In this document: positions 6,505-62,955 of the stretch, in pieces
How the letters are laid out: each line of letters starts with the position of its first letter
Position numbering within the stretch: the stretch's first letter is position 1
NCBI GenBank assembly: GCA_973895155.1
Contig: OZ316892.1
Coordinates: forward strand, 22,545,168 to 22,609,167
Origin: Marsupella aquatica
Lineage: Eukaryota; Plantae; Marchantiophyta
Reading direction: 5' to 3'
Length of the DNA: 64,000 nucleotides
Notes under the pieces: model-generated
What the model saw: the letters and a program-made list of their open reading frames with translations, nothing else
Told to the model about the DNA's origin: nothing
The model's database searches: none
Position numbers and translations under genes: made by a program

Positions 6505-7800
6505 GCGATGGAGGCAGAAGACCAACATTTTCCTCTCGTCCTCAAACGTGCGCTCCGTCGACATTGATGGATTTTGTAGAGTCACCCATGGGTTAGACGG
6601 GGTTTGTTATCTAACTACGGGTACTGTTCAGTCTAACCATAAGTGCGTGGGTAACTCCAGGCTAGTAGCGTAGGCCCCTAATACTAGAGCACTTCCTTTT
6701 GTAAATGCATCCAAAAATGTAAGTGCAAGTTGACTATGAGAGTGATGGATGTTGAACAAAGATGACATTTACAATGGCAAGCTTTTGATCATCCAACAAA
6801 CAAATAATTAACCCTGAGATATGTGTTTCACATCAACTGAGGTTATGCCACGTCAACTGAGGTAATGTCCATGGGATCACACAAGATCTTTATCATATTA
6901 GGCCCGTTGGTCATATCGAGCCTCCGTAATACAAATTCTCTTTATCTCACAACTGGTTTTATAACAATGAGCCTCAGTTTCTATTATCCACACATACATT
7001 GTTTGGAGAGATATTAGTAGTAGTATGGCTAACCTAACCAAGTCCGTGACTAAATTTAGCCCCAACTATGATTGCAATCCTAAGTTTAGACCTAAGAGTA
7101 ATTGCCTAACAATGGAGGCAGGAGACCGACATTTGACTCCCGTCGCCAAAGGTGTGCTCCGTATTGATGGATTGTGTAGGGTAACCCATGGGCTAGACAG
7201 GGTTATCTAACTACTATACAGATTGCCATGCAAAAGTGCATCATGTATATAACAACATTATGTGGGTAACTGGAGGCTACTTCTATAGTCCCCTAATATT
7301 ACAACACTTTCCTTTGTAAATGCACAAAAAAATGCACTTCTGTAAGTGCAAGTCAGTAGCCAGCTATGGAGGCAGGAAACCAACATTTTCCTCCCATCCC
7401 CAAAAGTGTGCTCCACACCATTGCCGGGTACATCGTAGCACCTTTGGAGTGTCACCGCACTTGACTAGACTGTACTTTTCATTGCTCACTACCATTGTGT
7501 CATAGAACTTAACTGAACTTTTCATTGATCACTTACTGTTTTTTTTCCATATGCTCTATTTATGTTATTTTATTCACTTACACATCACTACAAGATACAC
7601 ATCCCTACAAGACAAAATATCAAGCATGTGCTTGACAAAATATGAATTTCGAGGATGAACAAATGAATAACAAATAGTGAATACTCAAAGTACATTTTTG
7701 TCGATAAGAGTGCACATGCATTCATGAGATTGTGCAGGGTAATCCATGGGCTATAGAATCACGCAACACGAGATGGAAGCGGGCAGAGACCGACTGCTTC
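6505..7800. repeat. Diverged dispersed repeat module (2 long copies plus partial copies) in the divergent intergenic region
   Basis: An ATGGAGGCAG(A/G)A(G/A)ACC(A/G)ACATTT motif occurs at ~6508, ~7112 and ~7366. A downstream GCTCCGT..ATTGATGGATT.TGTAG.GT.ACCCATGGG.TAGAC..TTATCTAACTAC block occurs at ~6550 and ~7155, with a partial copy at ~7728. Confidence 0.7.
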
Positions 7801-8508
7801 GGCGATTCACAACCACATCCATCACGGCAGTGGTGCTGCTTACAGCTGACTGCGGCCCTCAGCCTCACGCGCTCTCCTCTGTAAGAAAAACTCTTGGTGC
7901 TCATTCCTGTCCATGCTTGATTCCTGCGTTCCTGTTTGTTTGCCGTCTTCCACGCTCTGCAGCCACTTGTTAAAATTGTTCGATTCTGTTCTCCGTCGTC
8001 GTTTTGATTACTTCAAATCATCTGGCGATCGGCTCATTCTAGCTCAGAAAAATGAAATCGTCTCCTGTGCATTTCGTCGGCTTGGGATTGTTTTGTGGAA
8101 GACAGAGATTGCAATCGTGTGCATTAATGCTGTCTGTCGAGTCTCTGGCATTTTGAGGAGTCATCAGAGAAATGTTTTAAGGCCCTTGTTTTGTCATTCT
8201 GGCGCAGCTCCTTTTTGGGGGTTATACGTGATTTACACCCCTAATTTTTATCTTGTAGGAGTAGTGTTTCTGGAACTTGTGCTCTCAGCTTTGTGTGACT
8301 GAAATCGAAGTCCGTGCTTCATCAGTTCACCTCCATTGTTGAGCTACGTGGAGTCCATCATAACATAGTGGAATTGCAGGTGTCGAGATGGTTGGATGCA
8401 GGCAAGGATTGGGTGCTGAGCCCCACTGAGAAAGAGCTGGCAGAGCTAGAGAAGAAGCGGAAGGTTTACTTGGGTCGGGACGAGAAGGAGGACAAAGGTG
8501 GAGACTAA
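7773..8508 (+). CDS. Small spliced protein (about 78 aa; in-frame alternative ATG at 7746), uncharacterised
   Basis: Exon 7773-7880 ends at a GTAAGA donor and exon 8380-8508 follows a TTGCAG acceptor, in phase 0. Product: MEAGRDRLLRRFTTTSITAVVLLTADCGPQPHALSS-VSRWLDAGKDWVLSPTEKELAELEKKRKVYLGRDEKEDKGGD*. The LLTADxGPxP motif resembles my recollection of a small conserved plant protein family (not verified). Confidence 0.6.
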
Positions 8509-9102
8509 ATTTGAGTGTTGGATACAAGCTTGGATGATCATCCAGACGATCGGCCAAATCGCCACCTGGGATCTTTTGCCCTGACTGCGCGTCTCAAGCC
8601 CGGTTGTTATGCCTAGCGGGTGTTACATGCTCATGAGCGCCTTCATACGTGATCAATTCATCTCTGGAGAGCAGGCTTCATTCTGGTTTCAGTTTAGTTC
8701 AGAATTCACACAGCTTGAGAGTGTCAGTTTGACACCGTTTGTTCCTTTCTGTAAACAATGCTACCCAATGATCGTCTGTACAGCTGTGGACTAACCTGTA
8801 GAGGTGGGAGTGCAAACTCATTGTACAATTTGGGAGGCGAGCTTGAACCCTTCGTAAAAACTTAACTAAGGCAGAAACAGTCGAACGTAAGATCTGGTAT
8901 GTCAACAATGGAGACAAAGGCATAATATCTCTGTATCTTAAATGCACTAATCTTGAAGCAAGGACAACTACATTCTTTAGCATATTTCCACGTCGAGCTG
9001 TTGCTCAAAGCAACGCCCAACGGGACCTCGTCCAGGTTTCCGAGCTGTGGAAAAAGTTTCCAACTTTACAAAGTTGCAGATCTTGCCTTCTTTTGGGCAA
9101 AT

Positions 9103-12100
9103 ATGGGAAGAAACGACGCGCGAACTTTACGGATTTGTTATCATGTACTGAAATTGAGGGCTTCTGGGCAACAAGGGGTGCGTACTCTTGCCCCTGGCAT
9201 TGGACATAGTTCAGCGTACTCGGATGGGACAGGAAAAGGTGATTGTAGACCTGGTCATCTTGGGTTTAAGCAGTTAAAGCCATCATGTGCAGATGTGCTT
9301 GGCATTCATCGTAGCATTGGACATAGGAACTTTGGGGTGGAGGGAGCAGACATGTATGAGCGGGTTCCAAAACCAGAAGCAGTGGGCAGGGAGCCGGAGG
9401 CAACATCGAAGGTGGTAGAATACCTGAACTCCTTGAGAAATTTTGAGAAAGAAGGAGTGCCGAAAGGGGCAGGTACTGAGTCTGATGAGGGCTTTGATCT
9501 TCGGCGCATGTCCCGTCTGCTCCTTCGCCTAGGAGATCCTCTTTCCAAGTATCTGGTATTGCAATATCGGCTTCAAGCATCTCCCCTAATGATGTTTGTG
9601 TCTTCCTGAGGGCAAAGTTTCGAACATCCTTCCTTTCAATGTACGTTCAGGTTAATTTTGCAGCTGGAACATTTGTCACTAACCTTATCAACGCTCGGAG
9701 TGCATTGTTGTCAATGTGGGGAGGTTTTGAGCATACCGTCCTAAATTGCAGAAATTATGGACTTTTGGCTTATTCACAAGACTATGACAACGTCTGCACT
9801 CTGTCATTGTACTCGAAGTTCGAAACCCTCAACCTCCATTTCTGGCGTTTCTCCAATCTCACAGGTTGTGCACGTTGCTGGAACAAAAGGCAAGGGCTCC
9901 ACAGTCAGCTTTTTAAGCCAAATTCTCCGAGCAGCTGGCTTCCGTGTTGGGTCATACACAAGGTAAGCAGATCCCAGGAGGCATGATTTCTTACATGCAA
10001 AATCGTAGACACCAGCGGGGTCATGTAATGCTCCAGTAAGCCTCAATTGTCCTTCGTCCTCCCCGATGGTCAATTCTTTTGGGTTTTCGTGTGCTCTGCT
10101 TTCTCCACGCTATATCTCTATTTGATTCGGCGTCGTCTCCTTTGAATTCTTTTATGAAGCACGAATGCATTGCAACGTCAGCTAGGCCTGGCATTGATGT
10201 GACTTATCCTCAAATTTTAGGGCTTTGTCGTGGCAGCCCACATATTCACAGCTTACGGGAGCGGATCACTTCTGGGACAACGGGTCAACCCATCTCTATA
10301 AAAGCCATCAATCAACTTTTTGATGATGTGCAAGAGAACGTTCATGAAGCTGTGATTGCTGAGGCTGGTGCACTAACTCACTTTGAGGTGACAACAAGTT
10401 CCTACATAGCCAGCTCACATGGTTCGGGCTCCTCAGAAGGACAGGGAGGATGTATTGAGTGGTAAACGTTGTCTTGCTCTAGGTGATGACATAGTTGTAG
10501 GCCCGAAGTCAAATTCAGTTTGGATACTAGCTTCAACTGTTTGAGCACACTTTACAAGTTGCAATATTCTCATTCTTTTTCGATGGAAATACAGGTGTTG
10601 ACGGCATTGGCATTTGTGCATTTTGCTCGTGAGAGAGTTGACGTTGCTGTCATTGAGGTACGTAATCATATAAATTCTGTGGACCTCCCCATCTATCTGT
10701 GTTACCAGTCTGCAAAAACCATTTCCTTGTGACACATGGAGGTGGGATACACTACAGGCCGGACTTGGAGGAGCTCGAGATGCAACCAATGTGATTCAAT
10801 CATCAGGTCTTCTGGCAGCTGTTATTGTGGGCATTGGAGAGGAGCATTTGGAGGCCCTCGGTGGCTCCTTAGAAAGTATAGCACTTGCCAAGGCGGGGAT
10901 AATCAAACACGGGCGTCCGGTATGACCTACTTAGATTCATGCTTATCTAGAACGTGTCTTATTTAAGACCTGGGTTTCATTTGCAAACATTGTTGAGGGA
11001 GCTGATTCATCATGTATTGGGGTTGTCTCGCCTATTTAGAAGAAAAATATCAGCTGAGAGTCTCTCTGCTTGCAACAGGTCATATTGGGCAGACAAACAG
11101 AGTCCGTTGCAGAAAATCTGGTACGACAGGTAGCAGCGTCAAAGAATTCTGCTGTGCTACCTCGACCTGGCCAGAGTGTTGTATTTAACACGAAGGGCAT
11201 CTGTTTAGACAGTTTCAACTCACATCAGATTTGTGATATCTCAATACCTGAAACAGCTTTAGGTGACAGTGCGGGTGACAGTGATGAGGTACCACATCTT
11301 GAAGTATTTCTGGCTCTGCAGATGAGTCAATTTGGTATTGTGAGAAATGGAGAGTTCTGCAGGTGCAGTGAGTTTTGAAAGTGAGACGATCAGCAGGAAG
11401 CTAACGAAAGATTTTCGCGTGGCTAGGCGTGGATGATTCAAGACTTGAAGGTCCCAGCGTTGGGGGCTCATCAGCTGGACAACGTCGCTGCTGCCATCCA
11501 AACTGCTCTGTGCCTCCGGAGGGAAGGTAAGCTCTGAGTAGTTCTGATTACCGATCACACAGACCCAACGTGTTTGGCGGACACGCACCTGTCCATGAAA
11601 TGCATACTTGTCCAGAAGTGAACGTATCCGATGTATTGCTCATTCGATGGTTTTGCGTGTGTTCAGGTTGGAAAATATCAGATTCAGCTATCAGACTCGG
11701 TGTGGAAAGTACCACTGTCCCTGGAAGATTTCAAGTTGTCAATCCACGTGAAGCCTTGAAGTTGGGCTCTCATGGCTCGACTATCATCTTGGACGGAGGT
11801 AGGCTCAAACTTTATGAAGAGTCTGACCTGGTTCGATCAAAGTCTCAAAATTTGGAGCATTGTAATTTGGCATTGTGTGTCGTTGTTACTGGTTGAATCC
11901 TTTGCCAATGACTACGAATGTTTTTCGTTATGCATACAATCTCTCAGCGCACACATTGGGCTCTGGAGCAGCACTAGCTCGCACTTTAAGAGAAGTATTT
12001 CCGAAGGAGTGTGTAGCCATGGTAATCGCAATGGCTTCAGACAAAGATCATGAGGGTTTTGCGAGGGCAATACTTAAAGGTAACGAAGAAGGCCAGCATA

Positions 12101-12705
12101 ACAGTAAAGGCTGAGCATGATCTTTTCGTGTGTAAACTCTGGACCAAGGAGTGCAGAATGTACATAATAGCAAGGAGTTTCATTTACTAGACTTGTCAGT
12201 GAACTTTGTCATGCCTGGTGTGGATCTTGGATAGACATTGGATCTAGATCGGGCAAGGCTTTTAGTTCAGTTAATTATCTGTGGCCTCTAACTTTGGGAT
12301 TGGGTTCCTGGATGTATTGCAGGGACACAGCCTAAGGTCATTGTGACAACAAGTGTTGATATTGCAGGGAGCTTGAAGCGCTCTACATCGTCAAGGTCGC
12401 TTATGGGTAGTTTTATGCTAGCTGGTAAAGACTTGAACATGACAGTCCTCAATGAACTTGACAGTTACCCTCACAGCAGATCTCCGATCCAAGTATTATC
12501 AAGTAGTACAGATTCCGTAGAGGTTAGATCACGAAGAAGAGAGCAAATGGTTTTACTGGAAGAAGCCGACTCTATCCAGCTTGCAGTAGCAAAAGCTGCC
12601 CAATTGATTCTGGACGTGAATAGGAAGAGACCAGGAGTGATATGTATCACTGGATCTCTTCATGCTGTTGCAACAACCATGTCTCATCTATCAACTATAA
12701 AGTGA
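9103..12705 (+). CDS. DFA: Dihydrofolate synthetase (FolC/FPGS family, DHFS type), probably organelle-targeted; 10 coding exons
   Basis: Exons approx. 9103-9555, 9865-9962, 10237-10387, 10595-10657, 10758-10919, 11079-11288, 11437-11526, 11667-11798, 11948-12079 and 12323-12705. Motifs: [21 protein letters not shown] (plant DHFS-like), P-loop [57 protein letters not shown]. Confidence 0.92.
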
Positions 12706-14529
12706 TCTTTCTGAAGGCGAAATATCCAGGGGCAGATTGCTTGGTTTTCGTTTGCTGTGATCGTCTTGGTTTGTTCTCGAAAACCTCCTGTTGTTTTCCC
12801 ATCCTCATTATATCAAGGCACAGACCTCTTCGTTTTTTCACTTCCTTCAAGGCACAGAGGAAGCTTTCTGTAAACATTCGTCCTGCAGAAACCCTGACCT
12901 AAGTGACGGGTCATGAAGAGTAAAAACTGGATCAATAACTTACGCCGCTAACAATTGTATTATTGGGTCGGTGCCATGCCAATGACGTGTAACACTAGTT
13001 TGATTATTGTAAGGACTTAGGGGGAGGGTTGAGTAGGAGGCGAGGGTGGTTCAGGAAGGGAAAGCTGCATGTCGTTGGATGGAGAAAATTGCCAAGATCA
13101 AGGGCGCACTTTCTTCAGGAAACTACAACCAAGACGTCGTTGCGTGACTAGAGTACGTCAGCGGGAAGTAGTGGCTGCGTGACAGGATCGAACGATCACT
13201 AATCACCTCCCTTTCTGCAACAAAGATAGCCAGATTACTGTCCCAATGTTGAGAGGAACAAATGGTGAAATTTGGTTGTGAGATTCCAGAAGAGAAGCAA
13301 AGCGTTAAAAATAGAAGAATTGGTGAACTTCTTCTGACCTATCAGTACCTCCTCTTCCAGTACTGAGAGAAACATGAGTGCTTGACAGATTCCGGGATAA
13401 GTACAAACGAAAATGCAGTGGACCTACCATTTCAGCATTGACTCCTCGAGCAGGAAAGGGGAAGTGCAATCTGAATCCCTGTTCACAAAAGGTCCTGTAG
13501 GGATAGACGTTGTCATATTGGGAACTGATTTTTGAGAGCCCGGTTAGAGGAGAGAACTGCCACAGTGCAGACTCTTGCCTCGACTCTTGGCAATAGTCTT
13601 TATCCTGTGGCTGAATGTGGTAGATGAAAAAGGAGGTAGGAAGTTTGCCAACCATAGGTTAAAGGGGCAAATCCTGAAGTTTTGTTGTTTTAAGTTTGTT
13701 GGTTGTGTTAGAAGGCAGGTGGAGCTCTGGACAATTGCACCAGAAGGGTTATTTGTTTCAACTCTCAACCAGGAGAAACTTGGACTAGAGTCATGATATA
13801 CATGAGCTACAACTCTCGAGATGAAAAGAAAGGAGATTGTGGTGCAGTGATTTTCATCGTGAAGGCCTTTGCACAAGAGGGTGACAGACTGGAAAGCTCT
13901 TGATTGCCTATCGTCAAAGTTTCTGATCCTTGAAGAGAGGACGGGTGAGATGATACATGAGCATTTAAGTTTTCACTCTACTAGTAACCTACAGCCATTA
14001 TACAGGCATTTGTGGTTTTATAATCTCATAGGAGGAGTCAAAACAGCCTGAATAGCCTTGTTGCTCAACTGTTGATATGCCACCTAAGCAGGTTGAGATT
14101 TTCCCTGATTTTTAGCCTATCAGAATTGAATCTCCCCCTTTTGAGGCCTTTTGGTTCCCTGGCAACTGTAATTTATCATTGTGTGCAGTGTTTCTCTGGT
14201 CTTTTCTCCCTAATTGTGTTTAGTTTGTTTTGTGACCAAGTGGCTGTTTACATGTACATATTCTTTATAGGTTTCCCATTTTATATCTTTTGGCTTGCAC
14301 ATGGCTCATTCACTACTTTCCCAAAAGTAACTCACCACTTTTTAAGTTGTATTATGTTATCATGTCATTGGGCCCTGGCTGTTCTTTATTTAAAGTTTTC
14401 TTGGGCGTGTTCAATTTGAAATATTGTTAAGAAGGGAAGAGATCCTTGGAGCTTGCGCACCTGGGGGGGGGGGGGGGGGGGGTTCAGTTTACATTTTCAT
14501 ATTTTTTAGAATTTCTACAATTAGGTCAA

Positions 14530-14886
14530 TGTCATGCCGAGGGACAGTGCCTCTTATGCACATCAGCATGTCCCTCTCATGCCCGCTAGGTATGTAGTTA
14601 GGGCTAGTGTACTACCTGAGTTAGCGACATGTTCTTGTAGCAAGTCTGGGCCGTTCTTGAAGCAAATGTGCTTGTTAGTGTGACGCTAGGACTTTGCTTG
14701 CTTAGGGCATGTCTTTCTTTGTTGGTTTTTAGTTCTTCTTGAATCGTTGTTGACAGAGCTCAGACAGTGTTCGTCAGTTCCGTACACGGGATTCACACAG
14801 TGATTCATTAGATGCTCCCGGCCGATCTTGGCATCCTGCCGGTTTCGATTCGATTTCAGTACATTTGTTTCTCTTACGCCTTTTAT
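14530..14886 (+). repeat. Terminal repeat A1 (357 bp)
   Basis: Matches 23550-23906 with 5 substitutions, all transitions. Confidence 0.95.
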
Positions 14887-15946
14887 TCAAAAAGAACTCT
14901 GGAGTTGGCGGTGAGGGGAAGAAGATAGAAGACATTCTTGTCTCAGCTGCTTATGTCGGTTCAAACAATTTCTGTCAAAGCTGGTGCAATTTCTTTGAGC
15001 GACAATGGAGGGACGAGTTGAAATTATGGGTTCAATATGGTGTTAAGTGTATACTTAACATAAGTATACACATAACCCTCCCGTTGGAGCCTGACTCTTT
15101 CTTCCCGGTTGTATCCGGGGACCCTTTGCTGCTTCCGACTATGGCTGCCGGCTGCTGACTGCCACTACCTTTTTCGGGCCAATTTTGTGATGTTTTTGTA
15201 GGAGGGGCTATCTGCATAGGGCCGCGCGCCCCTTCTCGGGAGTCACAATTTCACCAGGGCACGAGGCCCACAGAACCTTTCAGGAGGGGAGCGAGTGTGC
15301 CAGATGATCATTAAGAGGGCGAAGGGAATTTCCTTTCAGGAGCTCATAAGGAGGGGGAGGGGGCGCGAAGCCCTATGCAGGGCTCGAGCCCATAAAGAGG
15401 GGCCCATTTTTGCTCACTCGCCTCTTCCTGCCACCCGACTGTCAGTGGCCAATTCTCCCTTTTCCGGTTATTTTCCACCTCTCGACATTTTCTTCTCCCT
15501 GCCACCGGCCTCGGTGTATACACATACGGGAGTGCATAGGGCCGCGTGCCCTCCCTACTACTCCCTTCGACACTTTTCCCGGCTGTGACCTCCTTCGGGC
15601 TGCGATTTACTGTACTTCTTTCCGGCCGCGACCTGCTTCCGGCCAAGTTTTTCCCCCGGCCGCAACGACTCCAACAAAGGGAGCCGCACCGACATTGGGC
15701 ACCGGCCGGTGTATCTTACGTGTATACACATAAGGGAGGGGCCATTTTGTTGTTTTTATTCCTTTTTATTTTGACCCTCTTAGGCAAGGCCGGCATACAC
15801 ATAGGGGCCAATTTCATTCTCTTTAGCCCCGGCCTCCTTGCTTCACGCCGTTTATTTTATTTGTGGGTTTCACTTCCTAGCCTTGGGGCTTCCACTCCTT
15901 TTCTTGTTAGTTTCTTTCCCATCGGCACCCCGGGTGAGCATGCAGC

Positions 15947-17221
15947 ATGTCAGCAGAGGAGCCGAGTCGTAGCAGCTCATCACCACCAACACCCCGGTAC
16001 CACTTACGAAGTGATCCACGACCATTGGTGCCAATTTCATTGGAGTCTCGGCAATTTCGGCGACGTCAGCAAACAACAGCAGCACCCACACCACGCAATC
16101 CTTCTGCTACATTTGGCGGTCGCTCCACCTCTACCCTGAAGCCTGCTATCACTTCTTTGCCCTTTACTCCTTCTGCATCAGTGATTGTTCCAGCTTCACC
16201 GACATACAGCATGGATGCCAGTCACTCATCTGGCCGCATTGAGCGCTTCAGTGGGCGGCCAGGCACTGTTTCTTTGCGTGAGTTCAAATCCACTTTCTAC
16301 ACTGTCGTTTACGAATTGGAGCTGAAGTACGGCAGCAATTTCACAAATGCTTTTGCATTTAAGCAGCTAGCCAGGTATGTGCACCATGAGGCTTTGGATG
16401 TGTATGAGCAGCACTCTCAATGGCTGCTTGCTGTCACACAATTGCCTAACCCTACCTATGCCAATGCAATTGCGACAGCCTCACAATTGGCCTTACAGAA
16501 TGCCATTGCAGCCCATGCTGTTGCTCCTGCCATTTCCCCTCCTACTCCAGTTCCTACCACTGCGCCAGTTACTCCCACTGTCTTGGCACAGGCTACATCA
16601 GGCATTTCTCCCACCATTGATTCTCCTGCCTTTGCTGATCCAGTCACTGAGTTTTTCCAGGTTCTTGAATTGGAATTCCCAATCAAGAGTGCTGACAAAA
16701 TCATGCAGTTGGCCACCTTTGTGAGACAGCGCGATGAAACATTGAAGATGATGTATCGTCGGCTTCTCAAGCTGAAGGAGGACACCCAGAGCATCACTGA
16801 CCTGGAAGCTGCTCATCGCTATCTTCGCGCATTGGAGGGCACACTAGCTCTCCATTTGCAAGTGTTGCAGCAAGTATTCTCAGAGTTTGGAGACAGCTAC
16901 ACCCTGCTCAATGTCTATGACACTGCTGAGAAACTTGAGTTGGCCCATGCACATTATGAGGCCAGTATTGCGCGTCCACCGCAATCCAGGTACCAGGCTG
17001 CTGCCCCTACACTGGCCACCCCTTCCCGTGTGCCACAGTATGGTTCCAAGACCAAGCCAGCCCATGCTGCTTTCATGCTGCCATCTTGCAACTACTGTGG
17101 TAACCCCAATCACAAGGCTAATGAATGTGATATTGTCGCTGAGGACCTATCTTGTGATTTTTGCGGGAAAGTAGGTCACTTGGAGGCAGTTTGTTTTGCC
17201 AAATTCTCGGAAAGGAAGTAG
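15947..17221 (+). CDS. Retrotransposon Gag with two CCHC zinc knuckles
   Basis: IERFSG capsid-like start; knuckles CNYCGNPNHKANEC and CDFCGKVGHLEAVC. Ends at a TAG that is followed in frame by the next ORF. Confidence 0.85.
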   Translation: MSAEEPSRSSSSPPTPRYHLRSDPRPLVPISLESRQFRRRQQTTAAPTPRNPSATFGGRSTSTLKPAITSLPFTPSASVIVPASPTYSMDASHSSGRIERFSGRPGTVSLREFKSTFYTVVYELELKYGSNFTNAFAFKQLARYVHHEALDVYEQHSQWLLAVTQLPNPTYANAIATASQLALQNAIAAHAVAPAISPPTPVPTTAPVTPTVLAQATSGISPTIDSPAFADPVTEFFQVLELEFPIKSADKIMQLATFVRQRDETLKMMYRRLLKLKEDTQSITDLEAAHRYLRALEGTLALHLQVLQQVFSEFGDSYTLLNVYDTAEKLELAHAHYEASIARPPQSRYQAAAPTLATPSRVPQYGSKTKPAHAAFMLPSCNYCGNPNHKANECDIVAEDLSCDFCGKVGHLEAVCFAKFSERK

Positions 17222-17272
17222 CTACGACAGCAGGCCCCTCATCCTGCTCCTGCTTCCACTCCCCCACCAGCT

Positions 17273-20160
17273 ATGAGGGCTCCTACTGCATCCGAGACTG
17301 CATCAGTTGCTCCTCCTTCCAGTGGCAAAGCACCCAGTGCCAACAAATTGCCCAAGCAGCCACAGAAGCAACCAGCTCAGAAGGAGGCTCACAACGCACA
17401 GGCAACTCAACTCCAGTCTCTGACTCATGAGGTTGAGTCCCTACGTGCCCAACTTGCCAACATCAAAGGCAAGTCAACTGCCTCTACTGGTCCTTCTCAA
17501 CCGGCTGGTCACGTGCAACCCATCCCTGGCCCAGGCACCACTGACAGTTCAGCACCTCTACCCCGCTCTTTCTATGGCTTGCCATTTGATGCTCATATGG
17601 GTGAGTGTGTGTTGTCCTCTGCTACACAGCCTGGCCTTACAGCAGAATTTTCAGATTCATTCTGTCCTTCCTATTTTGCTTACCAGCAGGCCAGTGCTGC
17701 CTCCCGTATTGCTCCCACACGCCGCATTGTACAGGCTGATGGTCTTGCTGCTGGCCCTATGACTAGAGCGAGGGGAGCTCGGGCTGTCATGCCCCAATCT
17801 TTTCAGCCACTCACACTTGCTGAAGAGCGCACCTTGTTGGCGAGGGGGGAGGGAGCTGCAGCTACATCCATTCCACCACCAGGTGCTGCTGACATTTCAC
17901 AGGGAGTTATTTCTCCTGAGCTGCTTGAGCATTTCACCTCCGGTATGGCACAAAAGATTCTTACAACTCCACTTTTTAGTTGCCATAATTTACAGCTGGA
18001 TGCTAGAGCTGTCATGAGAGCGCTAGAGGGCTCATTGCATTCTTCATCAGCTCCTGTGCCACCAGTTTTGGAGGTCCCATCTCATGTACATACTGGACCT
18101 TCTTCTTCTCCATTGCATGCTTCCATTGGTTTGGCTATCCCAGTACCAATTTCTAGTGGTAGAAATGACAGTATTGCTGCAGATTGTGTGACCAGAGCTA
18201 CACTTGATTCTGGTCATGCTGCTCCATCTTTCCTGGCTATGCTGTTGAGTGGGAAGACCGTGGACACTAACTCCCTTCACAAGGTACCTCATCATTTGCC
18301 GAAAGTGGTACCTAGCGACAGGACTTTAGTTTCCACCACCATTGCCATTGTTGACAACAGGAATTCAGTGGTCAAGTTGGAGGGTCACACTCCTCAAGTG
18401 GTCATGCTAGACATAGGTGCTCAACCAGTGATATTGGGCATTCAGTTTGCCAAGAAGATGGGACTGTTGACTGATCATTTACAACAATCCAAGTGGCACA
18501 TTCGGACTGCTAGTGGCACTGTGGAGGATGTGTTGGGTGAGAGCTCTACTTTACTCACTCTCACTTTTAATGGAGGTACTGATCAGGAACTGCATTTCCT
18601 GGTCAGATGTTTGGTTACCAATGCCACTACGTATGATGTGCTCATTGGCCAGGAGGCTTTGTTCCCACCAGGTTTTACCATTGACAACTGGCATGAGCAT
18701 GCATACTACAGAGTTGATTGGCATACGGATGGCTCACACTTGGGCTACATTCCACTTGATTTGCATGGTGCCCATACACCTATGGCTCACCACTGTGTGT
18801 TGAAATCGGTGCACACAGCTACCTATGTCAACCACCCATTGCAGGATTGGATTGAGGAGGATGATGATGAGGTGGCTGCTGCACGTATAGCAGCACTTTC
18901 CAGCAATATGGATCATCAACCAGAGGTGGTACAACGGCTCCAAGCAGCCCATGGACCTTTGGTGGCTACATTGCGCAAATTTGAGGACCTTGGGCAGCAC
19001 AATGGACAACCAATAGCCCCAATCTTGAGCGCACCAGTTACATGGACTCCTCCTCCGGATGCCCTTACATTGCTTGAGCTTTTTGGTGGCATTTCTACAG
19101 GCCTGGAAGCTCTCCTACAGTCCGGCATGGTGGTGAAGCAGTACATCCACGTGGACATTGATCCAGGTGCAAGGCAAGTGGTTGAATCCCGTCTGCTGGA
19201 ATTTTCAGAGCGATTTCCTCAACAGTTTCCACACAGTGCCTGGAAGTCTGAATTTTCTTTCTTTCCTCCAGATATCCAGCTTGTCCAGCACCGGCACTTA
19301 ACCCTTCTTGGCTCCCTTGATTTGATAATAGCCGGTTGGGAATGCCAAGGGTTTTCAGCTGCTGGTCATGGTGCTGGATTGCATGATTCTCGTTCTGGCC
19401 TTTTCACAGCATTGGTTCAGGTTATCACCTGGGCTCAATCCCTTTACCCTGTTGTTGGTTATATCATTGAGAACACTCCATCTCAGTTTGACCAGCGTTC
19501 ACAGGTCAAAGAGGATTTCAGTGTGGTCCAACACTACTTTGGACCACCCCTTCTCATTGATGCAGTGCATTGTGGTTCTTATGCACATCATCTTCGTAAC
19601 TTTTGGACTAACCTGGTACCAGTTTCCTTGCTGGAGTTAGCTCTTCACCACACATCCAGGGACACTAACCTCATAGTGGACCAGATTTTGGATCCTGACA
19701 GTTCTTGCCAACCAGTTACACGGCAAGAGCCAGCACCTTGGTATCCAGCCAATACCATTGGACAGCCCCGTGCTGCTTGGCCTACATTTGTGTTCTTTCC
19801 AGGTGCACATGCTTTTCAGGGTGATGGTCCTGGCCTGGTTTATCAACATTCTACCGGTACATGGGATGAACCTAGTCCTGAGGAGAGAGAACAGGCTATG
19901 GGCTTCCAACCCGGTACTACAGGTCACACCAAGATCACCAGGTTGGCCAGGAATGCTTTACTTGGCAGGGTAATGGATCTTAATGCTCTCACTTGGCTTC
20001 TGGTTACTTGCATCCTTTTTCAGATGTACATTCATCCAGCATCAGGAGTTCCAGCCCTACCACTCCATGGTGCTGCTCCATGGCACCCAGACCAGGTGCA
20101 CTTACCTCTATTCAACACTCACCGCTTCAGTCCAAGTGTTGGGGGGGAGGAGGTCCCTTG
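17273..20160 (+). pseudogene. Pol N-terminal part: aspartic protease (~18390-18700) plus DNMT3-like C5 cytosine methyltransferase (~19064-20000)
   Basis: Protease motifs VMLDIGAQ (canonical DTG; D at 18410) and YDVLIG. DNMT motifs: I LELFGGISTG, II VDID, IV DLIIAGWECQGFS (Cys at 19343), VI YIIENT, VIII AHHLRNFWTNL, IX EREQAMGFQPGTT, X ARNALLGRVM. Confidence 0.85.
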
Positions 20161-20268
20161 TAATGTGGCTATATTATTTCTGAGTTTCATGGTGTGGATT
20201 AGACCAGAGCAACAGATACAGCAGGCCTTGGAGAGGCCTCATCACCTTATCAGCAGCATGCTAGCAGC

Positions 20269-23200
20269 TTGGCCAGTGGAGAGGCTGGCACTTATGGCTC
20301 TTCAAGCACGAGTACATCAGGTCCTATTCCTAGTGTTGCCAACTACACATTCATCATGGGCAACCACCTGAGTAAAAGACAGAAGGACCAGCTGCTGAAT
20401 TTGCTCCTCAAGCATGAGAATGTGTTTGCTTTCTCTATGAAGGACTTGGGTAAGTGCAAGACTATGCAGTTCTCCATTGAGTTGGCTGATGAAACACCTA
20501 TCTTCAGGCGGAGACACCGTTTGAGTAAGCATGAGTGGCAGCTGGTGGATGAGAGATGCCAAGAGCTCTATGAAGCTGGTCTTATTCAGCCATCTACATC
20601 AGATTTTGCAGCAGCTACAGTGATGCCAGCAAAGAAGGATTTCAGTGGATTGTGGTCAGAGAAGCGCATGTGTGGGGACTACAGGCCACTGAACCTGGTC
20701 ACACCCCAGGACAGGTACCCCATGCCACGGCCATAGGAGCTATTTGACAGCATTGGAGACTCAGACATCTTCACTCTTGTGGATCTAAGGCAAGGCTTTA
20801 ACCAGATTTTGCTGCTTGCAAAGGACCGCAAGAAAACAACTTTCCATGGTAGTAACCAACTATGGGAGTGGTTGGTGATGCCATTTGGCTTGAAGAATGC
20901 GCCCATATTCTTTCAAAGAGTCATGGACCAGGTTCTTCAAGGTGCTGAGTTTCTGAAATGCTACATTGATGATGTGTTGGTCCACAGCAAAGGATTTGAC
21001 CAGCATCTACTTGACCTTGAAGAGCTATTCATGAGGCTTAAGAAGGTGAACCTAAAGATACACCCCAAGAAGTGTGAATTTGCTGTCAAATCAGAAGTAT
21101 ACCTTGGGCACCGCATTCTTCCAAATGGAACCATGGCTCACTGGGCCAAGGTGGTATCCATCTTGGAAATGCCCACTCCTACCGATGTTCACACTTTGAG
21201 GAGTTTTATTGGGTTGTGCAATTACTACCGGATCTACATCAAAGATTTCAGTACCATTACACACCCATTGTATGCTTTGTTGAAAAAGAATGTGACTTGG
21301 ACATGGAGTACAGATGCTGAGGCAGCATTTGCCACTTTGAAGGAGAAGCTCTCAGAATACCCGGTGCTGAGAAGACCTGATTTCAGCAAGGTCTTTGTGC
21401 TACACACAGATTGGAGTGCCCTTGGGATTGGTGCCATTCTGGGCTAGCATGATGAGGAAGGTAAAGAGTACGTCATTGCCTATGCATCCAGGAGCAACAA
21501 TCAGGCAGAGAGTCATTATTCTTCTTATGAGGGTGAATGCCTTGCTGTTGTGTGGGCTGTCATACATTATAGGCCCTACCTCTATGGGACCAGGTTTGTT
21601 CTCTACACCGACCACCAGCCCTTGAAGTGGTTGATGACCAACGACAAGCTTACTGGCAAGCTTGCTCGTTGGGCGCTCATACTCCAGGAGTATGATTTTG
21701 AGGTAATTCATAGGCCTGGTGTGACACATCAGATTGCTGACACTATGTCCCACAGCCCTTTGATTACCTTTGATGATTCCTCAGATGCACGGCAAGATTT
21801 TGACCAGGTTTCTATCCTGCCTACATTTCATGCATCGACCTATCTTGCTTTGCTGCCATGCTATGTTGTTGACCAACCTGTGGTGGACATATGGGAGGAC
21901 AGCGACACTCTGAGATTTCTGCAGCATGGGGAGTACCCCACACATGTTACTACTGCCCAGAGAGACCGAATTCAGCAAAGGTCCAAGCGCTACTTGTGGA
22001 AGGGAGATCATCTCGTGCGCTGCTTGCCAGACAGGGAAGTGGTGGTTCCACCTATTCATGAGAGGGTTGGCCTTATCCATAAGGTACATTCTGAGCTTGG
22101 TCATTTTGGTGTTAAGAGGACTTACAGCCTCTTGGTCCCTCATTATCATTGGAGAGGCATGCATGGCCAGGTTCGAGATGTTATTGCCCGGTGTGATCAG
22201 TGTGATAGGGTGAGGACTTCCTTCACATCTCGACAACCCACACTTCATCCACTCCCTATTCAGGGCATGTTTTATCACTGGTCATGTGATTTGGCTGGAG
22301 AATTACCCCTCACATCTCGGGGTAATCTCTACATCATGATCATGATAGAGCATTTCTCAAAGTGGATAGAACTTGTGGCATTGCCGGATAAGACCTCCCG
22401 TAGCACCAGCCAGGCATTCCTGCAACAAGTTCTCAACCGCTTTGGAGCTTGTGCAGAATGTCTCACTGACCAGGGCTCAGAGTTTAGAGGAGAGTTCTAG
22501 GAGCTGCTTGATCAGGCCCTCATTGATCATTGTCGGACATCACGAGATCACCCACAGGCAGATGGCTTGGCAGAGCGCATGGTTCAGACATGCAAGAAGG
22601 GTCTCCGGAAGATTTGCCTCACCAAAAACAAGGAGGATTGGGACCTGGCCTTACCCTACATTGCCATGGGGTATAGGATGTCTAGACATGCATCATTGTC
22701 TAACTTTTCTCCCTACTTCTTGTTGTTTGGTCGTCACCCAGTTCCACCTTCTGCTATTGCTGCTCACATGCTTCAGGTGGTGGACTTGGATTCAGCTGTG
22801 ACTTGGTCTGATGTGATCTCTGAGAGGGCTGCCCTATTCAGGAGGGTTATGCCCATGGCCATGGAGAATTTGGCCATTGCACAACACAGGGACACACTGC
22901 GTTATGCACACACACGAGGGGGCACTTTTCAGCCCAAGGTCAGGAAGTTTGATGTGGGAGATTTTGTGTACTTGCAGCAGCAAGCTAACGACACCCTGGA
23001 CACCTCTACCAATCGTACTATTCTCAGGGTTAAAGCTATTCGACCGTCTGGAGTGCTAGAGTTACAAGGGGCAGATAGGCGCACAATTGCTGACAATGCC
23101 AAGAATTGTGCCCCTTGTCATCTGCCTAACCTAGATCCCACCATTGTGACTTCTACCTGGATTCCACCTGTGGACTACCCTTGTAAGGTGTGTTTGCGAA

Positions 23201-23334
23201 TTGATGATGCTGACCAGATGCTGCTGTGTGACAATTGCAATGGAGGGTACCATCTTTTCTGCCTTCGGCCTGAACTTACCCAGGTGCCAGAAGGGTTATG
23301 GTTTTGCCCTTCCTGTGCTCCACGTGCTACCTGA
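20269..23334 (+). pseudogene. Pol C-terminal part: RT, RNase H, integrase and PHD finger, in one frame with 3 internal TAG stops
   Basis: RT: RMCGDYRPLN, DLRQGFNQI, MPFGLKNAP, YIDD (20962-20973). RNase H: TDWS, YASR, ECLA, TDHQPL. Integrase: H-H-C-C (HSELGH...CDQC) and D-D-E (CDLAG, TDQGSEF, GLAER). PHD C4HC3 at 23182-23316. Stops at 20734, 21445 and 22498. Confidence 0.92.
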
Positions 23335-23372
23335 ATTTTCTTCAGCCCTCCTTTTGGCTGTGGTCTGGGGGG

Positions 23373-23547
23373 ATACAGAGGTTTACACCTCCACTACGTA
23401 CATACCACTTCATTTGCTTTTTCTTGGCACTTGTGAATGTGATTGGACTTTTTCTATGCATGTTGGTTGCTAGCAGCTTGCACATATGCCTTGCCGGTGA
23501 CTGTATGTTTTCGATACACTATGGCTTCGATACTATATGTCACGACA
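23373..23547 (+). repeat. Terminal repeat B1 (175 bp)
   Basis: Matches 23907-24081 with one mismatch. Preceded by a G6 run and ends CACGACA. Confidence 0.95.
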
Positions 23548-23549
23548 GC

Positions 23550-24081
23550 TGTCATGCCGAGGGACAGTGCCTCTTATGCACATCGGCATGTCCCTCTCAT
23601 GCCCGCTAGGTATGTAGTTAGGGCTAGTGTACTACCTGAGTTAGCGACATGTTCTTGTAGCAAGTCTGGGCCGTTCTTGAAGCAAATGTGCTTGTTAGTG
23701 TGACACTAGGACTTTGCTTGCTTAGGGCATGTCTTTCTTTGTTGGTTTTTAGTTCTTCTTGAATCGTTGTTGACAGAGCTCAGACAATGTTCGTCAGTTC
23801 CGTACACGGGATTCACACAGTGATTCATTAGATGCTCCCGGCCGATCTTGGCATCCTGCCGATTTCGATTCGATTTCAGTACATTTGTTTCTCTTATGCC
23901 TTTTATATACAGAGGTTTACACCTCCACTACGTACATACCACTTCATTTGCTTTTTCTTGGCACTTGTGAATGTGATTGGACTTTTTCTATGCATGTTGG
24001 TTGCTAGCAGCTTGCACATATGCCTTGCGGGTGACTGTATGTTTTCGATACACTATGGCTTCGATACTATATGTCACGACA
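23550..24081 (+). repeat. Terminal repeats A2 (23550-23906) and B2 (23907-24081)
   Basis: A2 is a copy of the 5' end of the element and B2 is a copy of 23373-23547. Together they run TG...CA. Confidence 0.95.
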
Positions 24082-27000
24082 TCAAGTGCATGTGGGTGCA
24101 AAACATGCTAAACCACCCTGGGAAATTTCTGACCTTGGGCATGTTGTTACCATCACAATTTTCTATATGGTCTCATTTCAGGATTAGGGCTACCCTACAC
24201 ATTTCAACCATTAAAATTCTAGACGTAAGTAATGGACGATGAAGTCCTGAATAAATAGGCCTAGCAGAAGCACTCCAGCCCTAGGGAGCCATAGTACTCG
24301 GAGCTAGCAATTGAAGATGTCTCCGAAGAGAGCTCAGCCATTCGTGCGGAGCCACCATTGGAGTCACTAGGCAGAGCCATTTGCATCAACAAAAGTGGAT
24401 GCACAACATAGAGCGGGCTCAACTTTTATTAGCTCAGGGGTTCTTGAAGAAAGAGTGCCATTGGTGGAGTAGTGTTGAGCTAAGACATGTCACCATGGCA
24501 TGCACATGAACATCCAACAAACAAGTAGTCAACACAGAGAGATATGTGATTCATGTTCTTTGAGGCTACGTTCACCCAAATACCCCGGCAAACACATGAA
24601 AGCTTTACTACACTCTATACCCATTGGCCCTGGGGGGTCACTTCCACTGAAGTGACATTCACGTGCAACAAAGTTTAGAGTCATTTAAATGGTTTTGACG
24701 GAATACTTATTAAGTTTTCATTCAATGGAAATATATGGTTGTTTAATTTCAAAATGCATATGTGTCATCCCATGATTGGTGTTGTACAACATTATATATA
24801 GTGACTTAGAGGGGTCATAACTGACCCACACTTTGGCACATGATGTATGGCCCTCCATATAATGAACCGACCCACCCCTTCCCCCCCGGCCTTTTGAGCG
24901 TTGGCCATACCAAATCTTGGTAGCATAAGCCCTCTCTATCTCTCAACTGGCTCCGTCACAATGAGCTTGAGTTCCTCTTCCACAAGCAAACACTAATTGG
25001 ATATATAGGATGCAGCATGGCTAACCTAATTAAGTAGTCCACTAAGGTTAGCCTAATTGCAGCTACAGCCATAACCCTACACCTAAGAATAAATGCTTAA
25101 CAAGTAGGCCGGGTATGAGGCTTCTTGAATCAAAAATGGAGTGTTCACCCATGCACAGAACCAAGACTCCAAGTAATTCATGCAAGCATTTTTGTTTGAG
25201 GTGAAAATTGGGTAGATTCCACCTCTCCAAAAGTATTTGCGACTTTTGGCAAACTTTGGGTAGGTTTCCTAACTTCATTATCTTGTTGCACAGACCCATT
25301 AGCCAAAGTTTAATGATCATCCTTAGATCTAAGAAGATCTGACGGTCCACATAATCTAAGAAAATTAGAGAATGAATATTCTTAGCATCTTCTCCTCCAC
25401 ACAAGGGCGACACTTGCCACACCAACCAAAAACAAGAAATAATAGTAAGCTCGCTCATGCCATCAAGCTAGTAAATTGAAAAGTGGATGTCATCCAAGGT
25501 ATTTAAAGTTGGGATAATTCATTTGTCTGTTGAGCAAACCCAATACAGCAATTTTTTAATTTTATAAAACCGAAGTCTGTGAAATCCCACCTAAAAAGAA
25601 CACTCAGCCACAACATTTGAAGTTTGGATCTATGAATCTCAACTCAAGTGAGTTACAACACACACACATGCCTATCTAGGAGCCAACACAACAATTTGAA
25701 CAGGGATAATTAACTCCTGTGTTGGGCAAATCCAATACAAGAATTTGAGACTAACACAGCAAATTTGAAGATACAATAATAATACAATACTCCAGTCAAG
25801 AAAATTATTTGGTGGGATCCCACATAGAGCAAAACCATAAAGCCCGCACCACACAAGAACGTCGCGCAATACAGGATCCACCAAGAAAGGTTTTGAAATG
25901 TCTGCAACACCAAGAAGTTTTGAGCTGTGCAGGGTCTCACGAAGTAATTTCCAGTTTTGGGCTGTGTAGGGTCTCACCAGTAATTTCCTCTACTTACTTC
26001 ACTGGCAAACATAGATCATATCCACAATGGATACGATCTTATCTACGAGAAAAACTCTTCAGCATTTGGGGGATTGAATTTTTGGTTTGGGGGATTGAAT
26101 TTTTGGTGTGTAGGAGAGGACTGGGGCATTTCTAGGCTATATAATTAATGCTACTTATGTAAATGAAACAAAATTCTGTAGACCATTTTTCCTGCAGAAC
26201 ACCACACGGGAGTACGCTTCATATCTCGCTCGTGTGATCATTTACTGTTTGCCAAAATAACGTAGGAGTGTCTTAAAATACCCGTGACTTCAATCAGAGA
26301 ATCAACGGCCTAATGAGTCCCCAGAAGAAAGGGCATCACTTGGACCGTCGATTGGATCTCCCCCCACAGTAGCAAGCGAGCTCAGTTTAAGAACTCCCGC
26401 ACCCCGAGTGGAATATTGTCGCACTATTTATTACAGTAGCAAAGCCCGACCGCTGCCTCGGTAGTCACAAGTACGGTTCGTACCTGACCCCACGGGGCAC
26501 GGGCTACAGGGTCCGAGCCCAGACAAGATTGATGACGCTGAGTTAAATGAGCGTCACGCTTCATACGAATCCGACGGCGCTAAATGCATATTTCTTCAAC
26601 CCGCCTCTGCATCGGGCGGCACAGATGAACCGGTCAACTGAACCCGCACGACGCCTCGTTACATCTTAACTCGACATCCCCTGCCCGACGGGCGGTCGGT
26701 CGTCTTTAAGGACAAAACCACTGCTCCGCTCATTTAGGGCCCTTTATGAAGGGATGGTGCCTTACATACCGTAGTAACTAGTAAGTGCCGCCGTGACCAG
26801 AGGCAGAGGAAGCAGAGCAGGCAGAGGACGAGGCGAGGGCTCCAGACTACAGAGCCCCCGGGTCCAGGCGTACAGGTACAGAGTGTGCCAAATACGGTAC
26901 TCCAGTGCAGAACAGAGCAGAGCAGCGCTGAGGCGGAACAGAGGAACAGAGGCATTGCACCAGACGAACAGAGTCGTATGTTATTACTACTGTACTGTGG

Positions 27001-27940: not shown

Positions 27941-29889
27941 AGTAGAGTTGAGGTCACACGTGTATCTGGTCTGATCTTTGATCTTCCAGCAGCGAGAGAG
28001 GGAGTGATTGGGGATATGGGTCTTTCATCACGTGAAGAAAGGGGGATTGTGATTTGAGTGTGGCTCAGTGGCTGTGTCACTTTGTGCAGTACGGCGAAAA
28101 ACTGGCAGAAGTGTTGAGAGAGCGCTATTGCGTTGGTCATGGAGGATAGAGTCTGCAGCAGTCCGTCTGTCTGAGCCGTCCTCCTCTCGAACGGCCACCC
28201 GGTGTTGTGTGGTGTGGTGGGCTAAGCGAGCGAGCGAGCGAGAGCACGCACGCACTCAATCCATCTATCAATCAATCAGGGAAGCTGGGTTCCGGTCGGC
28301 TTGTACCGTAGAATTGATGTATGTCCCTGTAGTCCAGTAAGCCACACACTCCCCTCCCGTGCTTCTTTTGTGATTGAAATACGCGTCCGTATCTGGGCAA
28401 CGTGAGGGTACACCGACCGATCTTGGAGTCACTCACTTGCTGCTGCTGTTGTACCCGAACCGAAAGTTGAATAGAATCGGAAGGATCTGGCTGGTGGGAC
28501 GCGCGTCCCTTCGCAGGAGCAGAGGACTTGACTGGACTGGACTGGACTGCTTTGCCTTGAGGGATCTGCCGCTAGGTACGACGCGATCACTGCTAGATCA
28601 AGACGCAACGTGATAGATTGATTGATACGCGCGACGCTGCAACTGAATGTAGTATCGGTTTTGACTTGCAGAAAGGATCTGCTCTGCTTCTGCAACACCA
28701 GAATCGAGCATTCTGTGGTAGGTTCTTACTTTCTCCGGTGCATATCTATGTCGCGCTGCTGCTGTCGTCGGTTAGGGGCTGTGCTGCGGGTTCTGCAGCA
28801 GAGGCCATCTTTCTTGCCAGATAACGTGAAGGAATTCACCACAATCGCAGTGTTGGTGAGTATTCTTCTTCACCCTTTCATTCAGTCAGCTTCTGTTCTT
28901 GATATATCCATCCATCTCGCCCACTCAAGAGAGGAATAGAGAGTAGAAGCCGAAATAGTATTCCACACCGGTGATGGTTGGGATTACTGGTATCTATCAG
29001 TTCGTGATACTCTGTTTTGGATGTGTCCTGAGAGGGACAAGAATGGCATCCGTAGAATAGAATCTGTCTATTGTGAAGTGTTCGAATAGTCAGTCAGTCA
29101 TGGAGCCGGTCCATCAAGCCGTTCTTCTCAGTATGACGGTGTGCTCCGATGTCATTCGTTAGTTTTGAGCATTACAATGAATTTCCTCGAGTGGGTGGGT
29201 GTTTAAGTACATTTGGGTAGTGGATGAAGTTATCTCTCCTGTGCGCCTGCACCATCTGTCAGTAGTTGTGCTCTCCTACCGATTGTAGCGGCTTCTCAAG
29301 GGCCGTTAGACTTTGTAATGCTGTAGTGGCTGGAGACGGTTGTGTTTTGTCGTTGTCCATGACCTTGGTACATTCGAGGGTATGAGATCGGGATTTGCAA
29401 GAGCTGACTCTTGGAGGAGTCAGTGAGCTCTGGGAAGCTACCAGATTATTGGGTGAATTTTGGAGTAATTATTTGACAAATTTGATTGTATTTCGGTTTG
29501 TGCTGCTGCGTAAGGCAGCAAGCAAAGCCCCCCTCGGAATGCTGGTTGAATGTAGTAATCAGGTCGAGGCAGAACTTTAGCTGGGTGTAAGATTTCAAAC
29601 TGCGAAAAGAGGATGAACATTTGGCACGTCAGTCAAAAGAGAGCTGAAGAACTCTGAGGAGCTGGATGGCGTGATTTATCGGCTACATTTGCGAACGGCA
29701 ATTTGGCCACCGAGGAGCTAAAGGCCGTGATTGATTGACTGCATTTGGGACGGCAAATTTCTTCTCACTGAAATGAATCAATAAAGTAGCAGCTGAGTCG
29801 TGTTTGCTGTATGTGTGCGTGGTGGCTGACTCAACAGGTGACACGAAGTAGAAGCGAGTATTGGCGGGATTCGACTGTCGGGAGATAAG

Positions 29890-31077
29890 ATGAGACAGAC
29901 AGACAGAGAGACAACAATGAGGGAAGTGCTCCTCATCGATGGTGAACATACAGAAGATCAAATGATGGATTCGTCCCTTTGGGGTAGTTTGCCCGACCAT
30001 CTGGTGGAGAAAATTCTGTCCCGACTTCCAGTCCAAAGCTTCTCTCGCTTCAGAACCGTTTGCAAAAGCTGGAACGAACTAGTCCACTCTCGGAGCTTCC
30101 TCAAAGCCTGCGAAAATGTCCCATCAGCGGGACCTTGGTTCCTCGTCTTTACAGGTGACAAGAACAAGACCGAACCGACCTACGACCCCTCTCTAGATAA
30201 ATGGCATCGGATACGCCTCCCATCCCTCCCTCTCCAGTTCGACCCTTTTATCATGTCATCCGATGGGGGACTGATCTGTTACTACACCTTCGAAGGTTTC
30301 GTCGTGGTTCTGAACCCCTTGACCAAGGCCTGCCGCTCCCTTCCTCCCATGGAGGCCTCTCTGGCCTGCGTTCACATGATATGTATGGTGACAGACAGGG
30401 CAACAAAGAGCTATCAGGTCTTCGTGGCAGGCAGGGCAAGGAACGAGGAGGGAATGTACATCATTGAAGTGGAAGTTTATGACTCTTGTAACGATTCGTG
30501 GTACAGCGTAGGCAATTTGTCCTCGAAGATTAGCATCATCCGGAACCAAGGAGGGCGAGGGGCCGTTTATGCCAGTGGATGTGTTCATGTCATTTGTTAC
30601 GATGAGCCGAAGGGTTTACTGGCCTACAGCTTAGATGACCACGTCTGGACTCGGATTGCCACTCCGCTTCCGGAGTCCGTTTCTTATGAGGAGTTGGTGC
30701 AGTGGCGAGAACGGATTTTCATGGTTGGTGGTCGGGAAGATGGTGACTTGATCGCCAGTATCTGCATTTGGGAGCTTCACACTGCCAGCTGGGAGTGGAT
30801 TCTGGTTGACAAAATGCCGGACGATCTGTTCCAGGATTTCTTCCTGCCTGATGAAGCGGACGACGTCTCGCTAAGCTGCACGGGCTGTGGGAATTTAATT
30901 CTTCTTCTCTCTACGAAAGCAACTGTGGACTGCTCTGGCCCACACCGGCATGTCCTGTACGACTTTGAAAAGAGACAGTGGACGATGGTGCAAGGGTACG
31001 CACCGGATGAACACATCATGGGGTCGGGTAGCTCCGAGGCCATCGGATATGAACCTCGTCTGGATGCCGTTGTCTGA
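29890..31077 (+). CDS. F-box protein with kelch/beta-propeller-like C-terminus (single coding exon, about 395 aa)
   Basis: F-box LWGSLPDHLVEKILSRLPVQSFSRFRTVCKSWNELV, followed by YDPSLDKW, SDGGLIC, VLNPLTKACRSLPPM, EVYDSCNDSW and a C-terminal YEPRLDA typical of plant F-box/kelch proteins. The start could be a downstream Met. Confidence 0.92.
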   Translation: MRQTDRETTMREVLLIDGEHTEDQMMDSSLWGSLPDHLVEKILSRLPVQSFSRFRTVCKSWNELVHSRSFLKACENVPSAGPWFLVFTGDKNKTEPTYDPSLDKWHRIRLPSLPLQFDPFIMSSDGGLICYYTFEGFVVVLNPLTKACRSLPPMEASLACVHMICMVTDRATKSYQVFVAGRARNEEGMYIIEVEVYDSCNDSWYSVGNLSSKISIIRNQGGRGAVYASGCVHVICYDEPKGLLAYSLDDHVWTRIATPLPESVSYEELVQWRERIFMVGGREDGDLIASICIWELHTASWEWILVDKMPDDLFQDFFLPDEADDVSLSCTGCGNLILLLSTKATVDCSGPHRHVLYDFEKRQWTMVQGYAPDEHIMGSGSSEAIGYEPRLDAVV

Positions 31078-62799: not shown

Positions 62800-62955
62800 A
62801 TGGCTGTGGATTTTTACTGCCCAGGAGGTTTTTTGTATTGGGACAAAGGCAAAATAAAAAGGTGGGATCCAGATTGCATGGCTGTGGATTTTTACTGCCC
62901 AGGAGGTTTTTTGTATTGGGACAAAGGCAAAATAAAAAGGTGGGATCCAGATTGC
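62800..62955. repeat. Perfect 78-bp tandem duplication
   Basis: 62800-62877 is identical to 62878-62955. Confidence 0.92.

Follow-up and report, generated by a model that had tools for sequence, protein, structure and literature searches.

Split repeats, putative self-priming signals and a proposed permuted LTR in a Ty3/Gypsy-type element from Marsupella aquatica

Split-repeat and self-priming elements compared

On the usual view, LTR retrotransposons and retroviruses integrate the ends that reverse transcription has made. Tf1/Sushi and Tcn1 elements carry complete LTRs at both ends, and their integrase ends are the cDNA ends. Like the element described here, they have a primer site that can pair with the predicted 5′ end of the RNA, a polypurine tract (PPT), a DDE integrase, and a short target-site duplication (TSD) (PMC4600332, PMC6317226); they have a chromodomain, whereas our element has a PHD finger and a cytosine methyltransferase (DNMT). 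PAT/TOC1, Ngaro, VIPER, and TATE share with it the layout A1-internal-B1-A2-B2, but are described with a tyrosine recombinase and no TSD (PMC8969392, PMC6681497); our element, by contrast, combines a Ty3-like RT and an rve integrase with TG/CA ends and a TSD of 4 bp.

KnitGypsy-Dnmt3 of Klebsormidium nitens has Gypsy domains with a DNMT in Pol, and the legend to Figure 4c of its description calls its repeats "the same as that of a DIRS retrotransposon", with no mechanism given (de Mendoza et al. 2018, PMC5890265). On that account, the split-repeat layout on a DDE element is not a first. A 2026 preprint names "streptophytes (Gypsy-DNMT3)", in its available text without detail (10.64898/2026.05.21.726589). 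In the accessible literature we found neither a permuted LTR whose att sites are internal, nor the A..B form, nor a bryophyte occurrence of this family described; subscription journals, Repbase, and theses may hold more.

The window analysed here, a stretch of 64,000 nucleotides of the M. aquatica contig OZ316892.1, holds an element that resembles KnitGypsy-Dnmt3 in its DNMT inside Gypsy Pol and its A-coding-B-A-B repeats. The first-pass annotation had recognised the layout, the DDE integrase, and the TSD; it had missed the methyltransferase and the K. nitens precedent. The two elements differ in methyltransferase motif IV, which is GWECQG in the window and GWPCQG in Klebsormidium, and in setting, since the window element is probably in a liverwort host, high-copy, and insertion-polymorphic, whereas KnitGypsy-Dnmt3 is algal. 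We describe the TSD, priming sites, and junction, on which the passages of PMC5890265 that treat KnitGypsy-Dnmt3 are silent. A DNMT-bearing retrotransposon protein of K. nitens is 48% identical to the window element in RNase H-integrase. The window's protease-DNMT region aligns with the K. nitens retrotransposon protein KFL_009030040 (29% over 620 columns, E 4e-70), possibly one of the elements named in PMC5890265. An RNase H-integrase tree did not resolve the deep forks that bear on a common clade with the K. nitens elements.

The PHD-bearing Gypsy-7a_cRei of Chlamydomonas, whose left LTR is reported without the last 8 bp of the right (PMC9940879), may be related. Troyka, like the window element, is an LTR-class retroelement with a DDE integrase. 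The first-pass annotation mentioned split repeats in Troyka as a point to check, but this was mistaken, as these animal-only elements are described with paired ordinary LTRs, CG..CG ends, and a 3-bp TSD (PMC12440569). Membership in Troyka was rejected, since the window element has TG..CA ends and a 4-bp TSD.

The window element and its family

Self-comparison of the window placed the repeats exactly where they had first been annotated (coordinates refer to the + strand). A1 (14530–14886), which starts TGTCATG and forms the left integrase end, and A2 (23550–23906) are 357 bp long and 98.6% identical; B1 (23373–23547) and B2 (23907–24081), both ending in CACGACA and the latter forming the right integrase end, are 175 bp long and 99.4% identical. 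A1 has no adjoining B. A GC dinucleotide (23548–23549) stands between B1 and A2, in a palindromic junction GACA-GC-TGTC (23544–23553) where two integrase ends abut across a 2-nt spacer. A and B joined would read TG...CA, as in a normal 532-bp LTR. TCAA is found on either side of the element, at 14526–14529 and 24082–24085, and a 683-bp contig of run X1 links 14525 straight to 24082 with one TCAA. The left part of this contig differs from the window by 19 letters and 12 gap positions, and its right part is identical at 333 of 333 letters. This empty site fixes the ends of the element at 14530 and 24081, confirms the TSD reported earlier as one of 4 bp, and makes the insertion polymorphic. Single-copy contigs of run X3 also enter the element from either flank, by 26 and 30 nt, but are not independent, X3 possibly having the same source as the window.

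A Gag-like frame with zinc knuckles, ended by a stop in the window copy (15947–17221; zf-CCHC E 0.003, under the Pfam cut-off), precedes an aspartic protease and then a C5 cytosine methyltransferase (17222–20371; protease E 1.4e-4, PF00145 E 8.6e-6). RT, RNase H, an HHCC-DD(34)E integrase, and a PHD finger follow as Pfam domains (20203–23334). The window copy is broken by a frame change and several stops, those within the RT-to-PHD frame lying at 20734, 21445, and 22498. The order PR-RT-RH-IN with an HHCC-DDE integrase is that of Ty3/Gypsy (Metaviridae). The integrase D-to-E spacing of 34 is also found in 66/67 motif-bearing homologues, the best solved-structure match of P0001, a relative that is 82% identical, is Ty3 Gag-Pol (E 1e-94), and the TG...CA ends with a 4-bp TSD fit this group, where the TSD is 4–6 bp. 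Two complete LTRs, with a primer-binding site (PBS) after the first and a PPT before the second, are not found in the window element, because its left end is A only and its G-tract lies before B1; they appear only if the LTR is read as a permuted B-gc-A. From its sequence, we class the element as a retrotransposon of the Ty3/Gypsy type that also encodes a cytosine methyltransferase and a PHD finger. A Pfam scan of 31 reading frames, comprising the six main ORFs and 25 others and covering most frames of ~85 aa or more, detected no tyrosine recombinase. Of the characters of PAT/Ngaro elements, the split direct repeats are present; no tyrosine recombinase was found in those 31 frames, and there is a TSD, which PAT/Ngaro elements lack.

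Motif IV of the methyltransferase (GWECQG, ~19322–19345) departs from WPCQG in the window copy and in 12/15 close relatives, which have WECQG or WECKG; in the other three the motif was not found. The cysteine is kept wherever the motif is present, despite this change. A DNMT-region match was obtained in 15/16 related loci. Homologues named among the matches come from Calypogeia, Coleochaete, Klebsormidium, Closterium, Pleodorina, and Tetraselmis, and no relative was found in a scan of viral contigs.

Elsewhere in the window, an F-box/Kelch gene (29842–31077) is 95% identical to a Calypogeia fissa protein, from which the host was placed as probably a leafy, Calypogeia-like liverwort. About 380 bp (24553–24932) are skipped in other contigs, which suggests a small insertion inside another repeat adjoining the element. 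Nested inverted repeats of 52–100 bp and 74–87% identity at 43123–47842 may represent an old DNA transposon bounded by long terminal inverted repeats. Two long reading frames of 382 and 631 aa (53697–54845 and 57043–58938) have no Pfam match, and several short tandem duplications of 48–88 bp, one of them exact, lie at 62320–63731.

Copies of the window's own family are known as short Logan contigs of runs X1 and X3. Unrelated flanks stand directly before the start of A in at least 13 contigs of X1 and at least 14 of X3, and A followed by internal sequence occurs in at least three contigs of each run. The B-gc-A junction (at 23548) is crossed by many contigs of both runs at high depth. The family is high-copy and insertion-polymorphic. 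Individual element contigs in X3 have a depth of 1200–1500, against 15.5 for the flanks, which suggests, as a rough figure, some 80–100 close copies. Short contig variants in X1 and X3 at window positions 23623–24038 join a truncated A to the start of a B that lacks ~80 bp; they are possibly non-autonomous derivatives.

The related set comprised the best 80 of 560 stretches from metagenome contigs, with 65–79% amino-acid identity and one at 53%; the junction statistics therefrom come mostly from one related family, not the window's own. Among these best 80, the right end is B-A-B in 33, B alone in 26, B-A without B2 in four, and cut in or just after B in two, and 15 have no B1. Grouping by right flank gave 41 independent insertions, of which 22 end in B-A-B and 19 in B only. 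L056, which has no right flank and whose junctions are those of L036, was left out of the B-A-B count. Two insertion forms are therefore seen, A..BAB and A..B, and ten full-length relatives have the former. B precedes A at 0/21 independent A ends, which leaves no example of a complete A+B LTR on the left or of the mirror form A-B-gc-A..B. The A..BAB layout is family-wide, and the first-pass view of split repeats on a DDE-integrase element holds beyond the window copy. The expectation that independent insertions would all start with A alone and end in B-gc-A-B was borne out at the left ends and in only part at the right. That each would have its own TSD was likewise true in part: among 16 related insertions with both ends, it is exact over 4 bp in eight (in L066 after allowing for one extra 12-nt subrepeat), has one mismatch in three, and two or more in five. 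L019, L020, and L022 carry a second B-A-B block with partial pol 3′ of the first, perhaps a nested or tandem copy.

Candidate priming signals and repeat junctions

A G-rich run lies directly 5′ of B1 in the window, where it is a PPT-like G6 (23367–23372), in all 46 related rows listed, and in L075; no such tract precedes A2 in the window or in those 46 rows. Directly 3′ of A1, 14–15 nt are complementary to a site inside A. In the window, this PBS-like site is 14885–14898, and 13 of its 14 positions pair with 14731–14744, the candidate self-primer and 5′ end of the RNA. The one mismatch (14891) is specific to the window copy, the other contigs of the family being complementary there. This pairing was the best-scoring match to A in 10/10 elements tested, with that of L060 shifted 2 nt from the A end. 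Among random internal 23-mers, 0/150 reached the score of L036 and 2/150 the weaker score of the window. Two compensatory changes separate the window family from its relatives, and the distant family of L075 has an exact 16-nt pair of unrelated sequence at the corresponding places, so that the pairing covaries across three families. The distant member itself (L075:976–9038) has two long open frames, the motif GWPCQG, and the G-tract, B, CA-GT-TG, A, and primer site; as a circularly permuted or collapsed contig, it is informative for the priming anatomy and not for B-A-B.

A TATA box, TATAAAAG, stands 31–32 nt upstream of the primer-equivalent site in 26/27 related rows, and none was found at the expected place in the A of the window copy. 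A1 is predicted to hold the promoter, R, and U5. No tRNA-type primer site (TGG...) was seen by eye directly after A1. The minimum-energy fold of 14731–14905 does not contain the primer helix (z 0.79); the centroid structure forms it. At the sequence level, the region 3′ of the predicted U5 holds a site that could pair with the predicted start of the RNA, as expected for self-priming of the Tf1 type, and the priming signals match that mode. Taken together, the signals point to ordinary LTR-type reverse transcription with permuted repeats in preference to a PAT/Ngaro-type cycle.

In 27/27 related rows, TG and CA meet at the B-A junction across a 2-nt spacer (GC 11, GT 9, AC 5, AT 1, GA 1; three rows are one insertion). 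The A2|B2 joint (23906/23907 in the window) is less constant, being exact in 11/22 related insertions and altered in 11/22. Clear length changes affect 9/22, whereas the rest of the repeats has 0.0073 indels per nt (P 1.7e-6); slippage at this AT-rich joint (AATATA) could inflate the indel count. From its imprecision, we infer that the joint may be an end-joined seam. One insertion, assembled as L038–L040, has kept both att ends and a near-TSD (CCCT/CCTT), and its inner part is inverted (L039:2527–6073 and L040:6501–12404). The inversion breaks fall at the exact end of A2 and ~15 nt into B2, as would be expected if free DNA ends had existed there. Separately, L043 and L048 (~7702–12822) contain a minus-strand element that ends in B and holds a 2.2-kb inversion inside, with a 4-bp overlap at one of the breaks.

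Proposed replication cycle and alternatives

On balance, we consider it likely, with somewhat better than even confidence, that the element replicates via a permuted LTR whose internal junction is predicted to be cut by the integrase. The RNA would start inside A1 and prime itself, in the manner of Tf1, at the site after A1, and the plus strand would start at the G-tract. Plus-strand priming at B1 combined with minus-strand priming after A1 would make B-gc-A the reverse-transcribed repeat, and the cDNA would be [B-gc-A]-internal-[B-gc-A], whose ends differ from those used by integrase. Integrase would then cut both strands of the palindromic junction at CA^GC, leaving CA-3′OH ends with 2-nt overhangs that would resemble processed retroviral ends. 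A precedent for such a cut is the foamy-virus integrase, which is described as cleaving palindromic end-to-end LTR-LTR junctions into processed ends; there the junction is formed by joining cDNA ends, whereas here it is encoded inside the repeat (PMC1180852). With the left junction cut, end joining could seal the free end of A to the free start of B, before or after strand transfer, to give A..B-gc-A-B, which corresponds to a two-repeat cDNA in which A has been joined by its end to where B begins and the left CA-GC-TG junction has been opened. The A..B form would be the product of a one-repeat intermediate, or of cutting both junctions, and is presumably a dead end.

The G-tract before B1 and never A2, the covarying primer site, the position of the TATA box, and the fixed 2-nt spacer argue for this permuted-LTR model, as do the imprecise A|B joint, the L038–L040 inversion, and the interleaving of A..B copies described below. 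Against it stand the minimum-energy fold without the primer helix, the window's A without a TATA box, slippage at the AT-rich joint, the possible short-read collapse of young copies, and the origin of most junction statistics in one related family. The model also has to assume an extra asymmetry, because free closure of a two-repeat circle should give the mirror form and the observed form equally often, and the mirror form was observed at 0/21 A ends. A speculative reason for its absence is that the left junction would be double-stranded long before the right, directly after second-strand transfer, when the right junction would still await ~8.5 kb of plus-strand synthesis; we regard this explanation as doubtful.

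The alternative that survives best, though with a low probability, is that a host-ligated two-repeat circle is the sole precursor and always yields A..BAB. A..B copies would then be secondary, produced when B1 recombines with B2 or when an assembly collapses the two. Recombination between these neighbouring direct repeats would leave the TSD intact, as observed in L034, L037, and L049, and the imprecise A|B joint fits circle closure, but a circle with this symmetry should also yield the mirror form. On a DNA tree of the 41 insertions, A..B and A..BAB are interleaved (14 label changes against a shuffled mean of 13.85), and A..B copies are not older (median terminal branch 0.064 versus 0.087 for A..BAB, one-sided P 0.92), which argues against both a separate lineage and slow later recombination. 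Short-read assembly could have collapsed B-A-B in young A..B copies; old ones are also present, however, whose B1 and B2 would have diverged too far for this, and duplicate assemblies of one insertion agree in form every time. Nor was a solo A-B found in the 80 best loci.

Models of the PAT/Ngaro type use an internal junction that matches the joined ends, which counts for a second alternative, a cycle of this kind run by a DDE enzyme. The RNA would extend from A1 into B2, the ends would be rebuilt from B1-gc-A2, the circle closed, and only the new junction opened by integrase. The layout A1-internal-B1-A2-B2 is what defines the split-repeat DIRS elements as described in PMC8969392, and this cycle could account for the missing mirror form. 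However, it assigns no function to the G-tract upstream of B1 or to the covarying primer site that follows A1, makes A2|B2 RNA-templated and hence precise where half of the 22 copies are altered, and does not explain the 19/41 A..B copies. We consider it improbable, and slightly more so than the circle.

That a normal Gypsy with full A+B LTRs was rearranged in the window copy or misassembled, as the TG...CA reading of A+B and the stops of this copy might suggest and as the first-pass annotation had allowed, is refuted by the related insertions and has next to no probability, given the ten full-length A..BAB relatives, the A ends never preceded by B, the A-internal and high-depth B-gc-A contigs of the window's family, and the lack of a G-tract before A2.

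For the permuted-LTR model we also considered a wider reading, which as a whole we judge evenly balanced. In a green-lineage Gypsy-DNMT-PHD clade, from algae to bryophytes, the ends of reverse transcription would be uncoupled from the integrase ends; the att sites would lie head-to-head in a permuted LTR, with integrase acting as a junction endonuclease in each cycle; and host end joining would complete the replication-competent insertions, about half of the products being dead-end A..B.

The layout is known from one alga, and its replication anatomy appears undescribed. New here are the G-tract before B1, the covarying self-priming site after A1, the abutting TG...CA ends with a fixed spacer, and the imprecise A2|B2 joint in 11/22 copies. 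This anatomy points to a variant of LTR retrotransposition in which the priming signals lie apart from the integrase ends, so that internal cleavage and end joining would be obligatory. It offers a concrete cycle, open to experimental test, for a layout that was reported in 2018 without an explanation. LTR finders would mis-delimit the family as A..A, or miss the A..B form altogether, and so misread a large, recently mobile bryophyte family with its own cytosine methyltransferase. If true, the cycle would represent a separate way for LTR elements to replicate and could serve to model the origin of split-repeat elements, and it may bear on the evolution of the split repeats of PAT and Ngaro.
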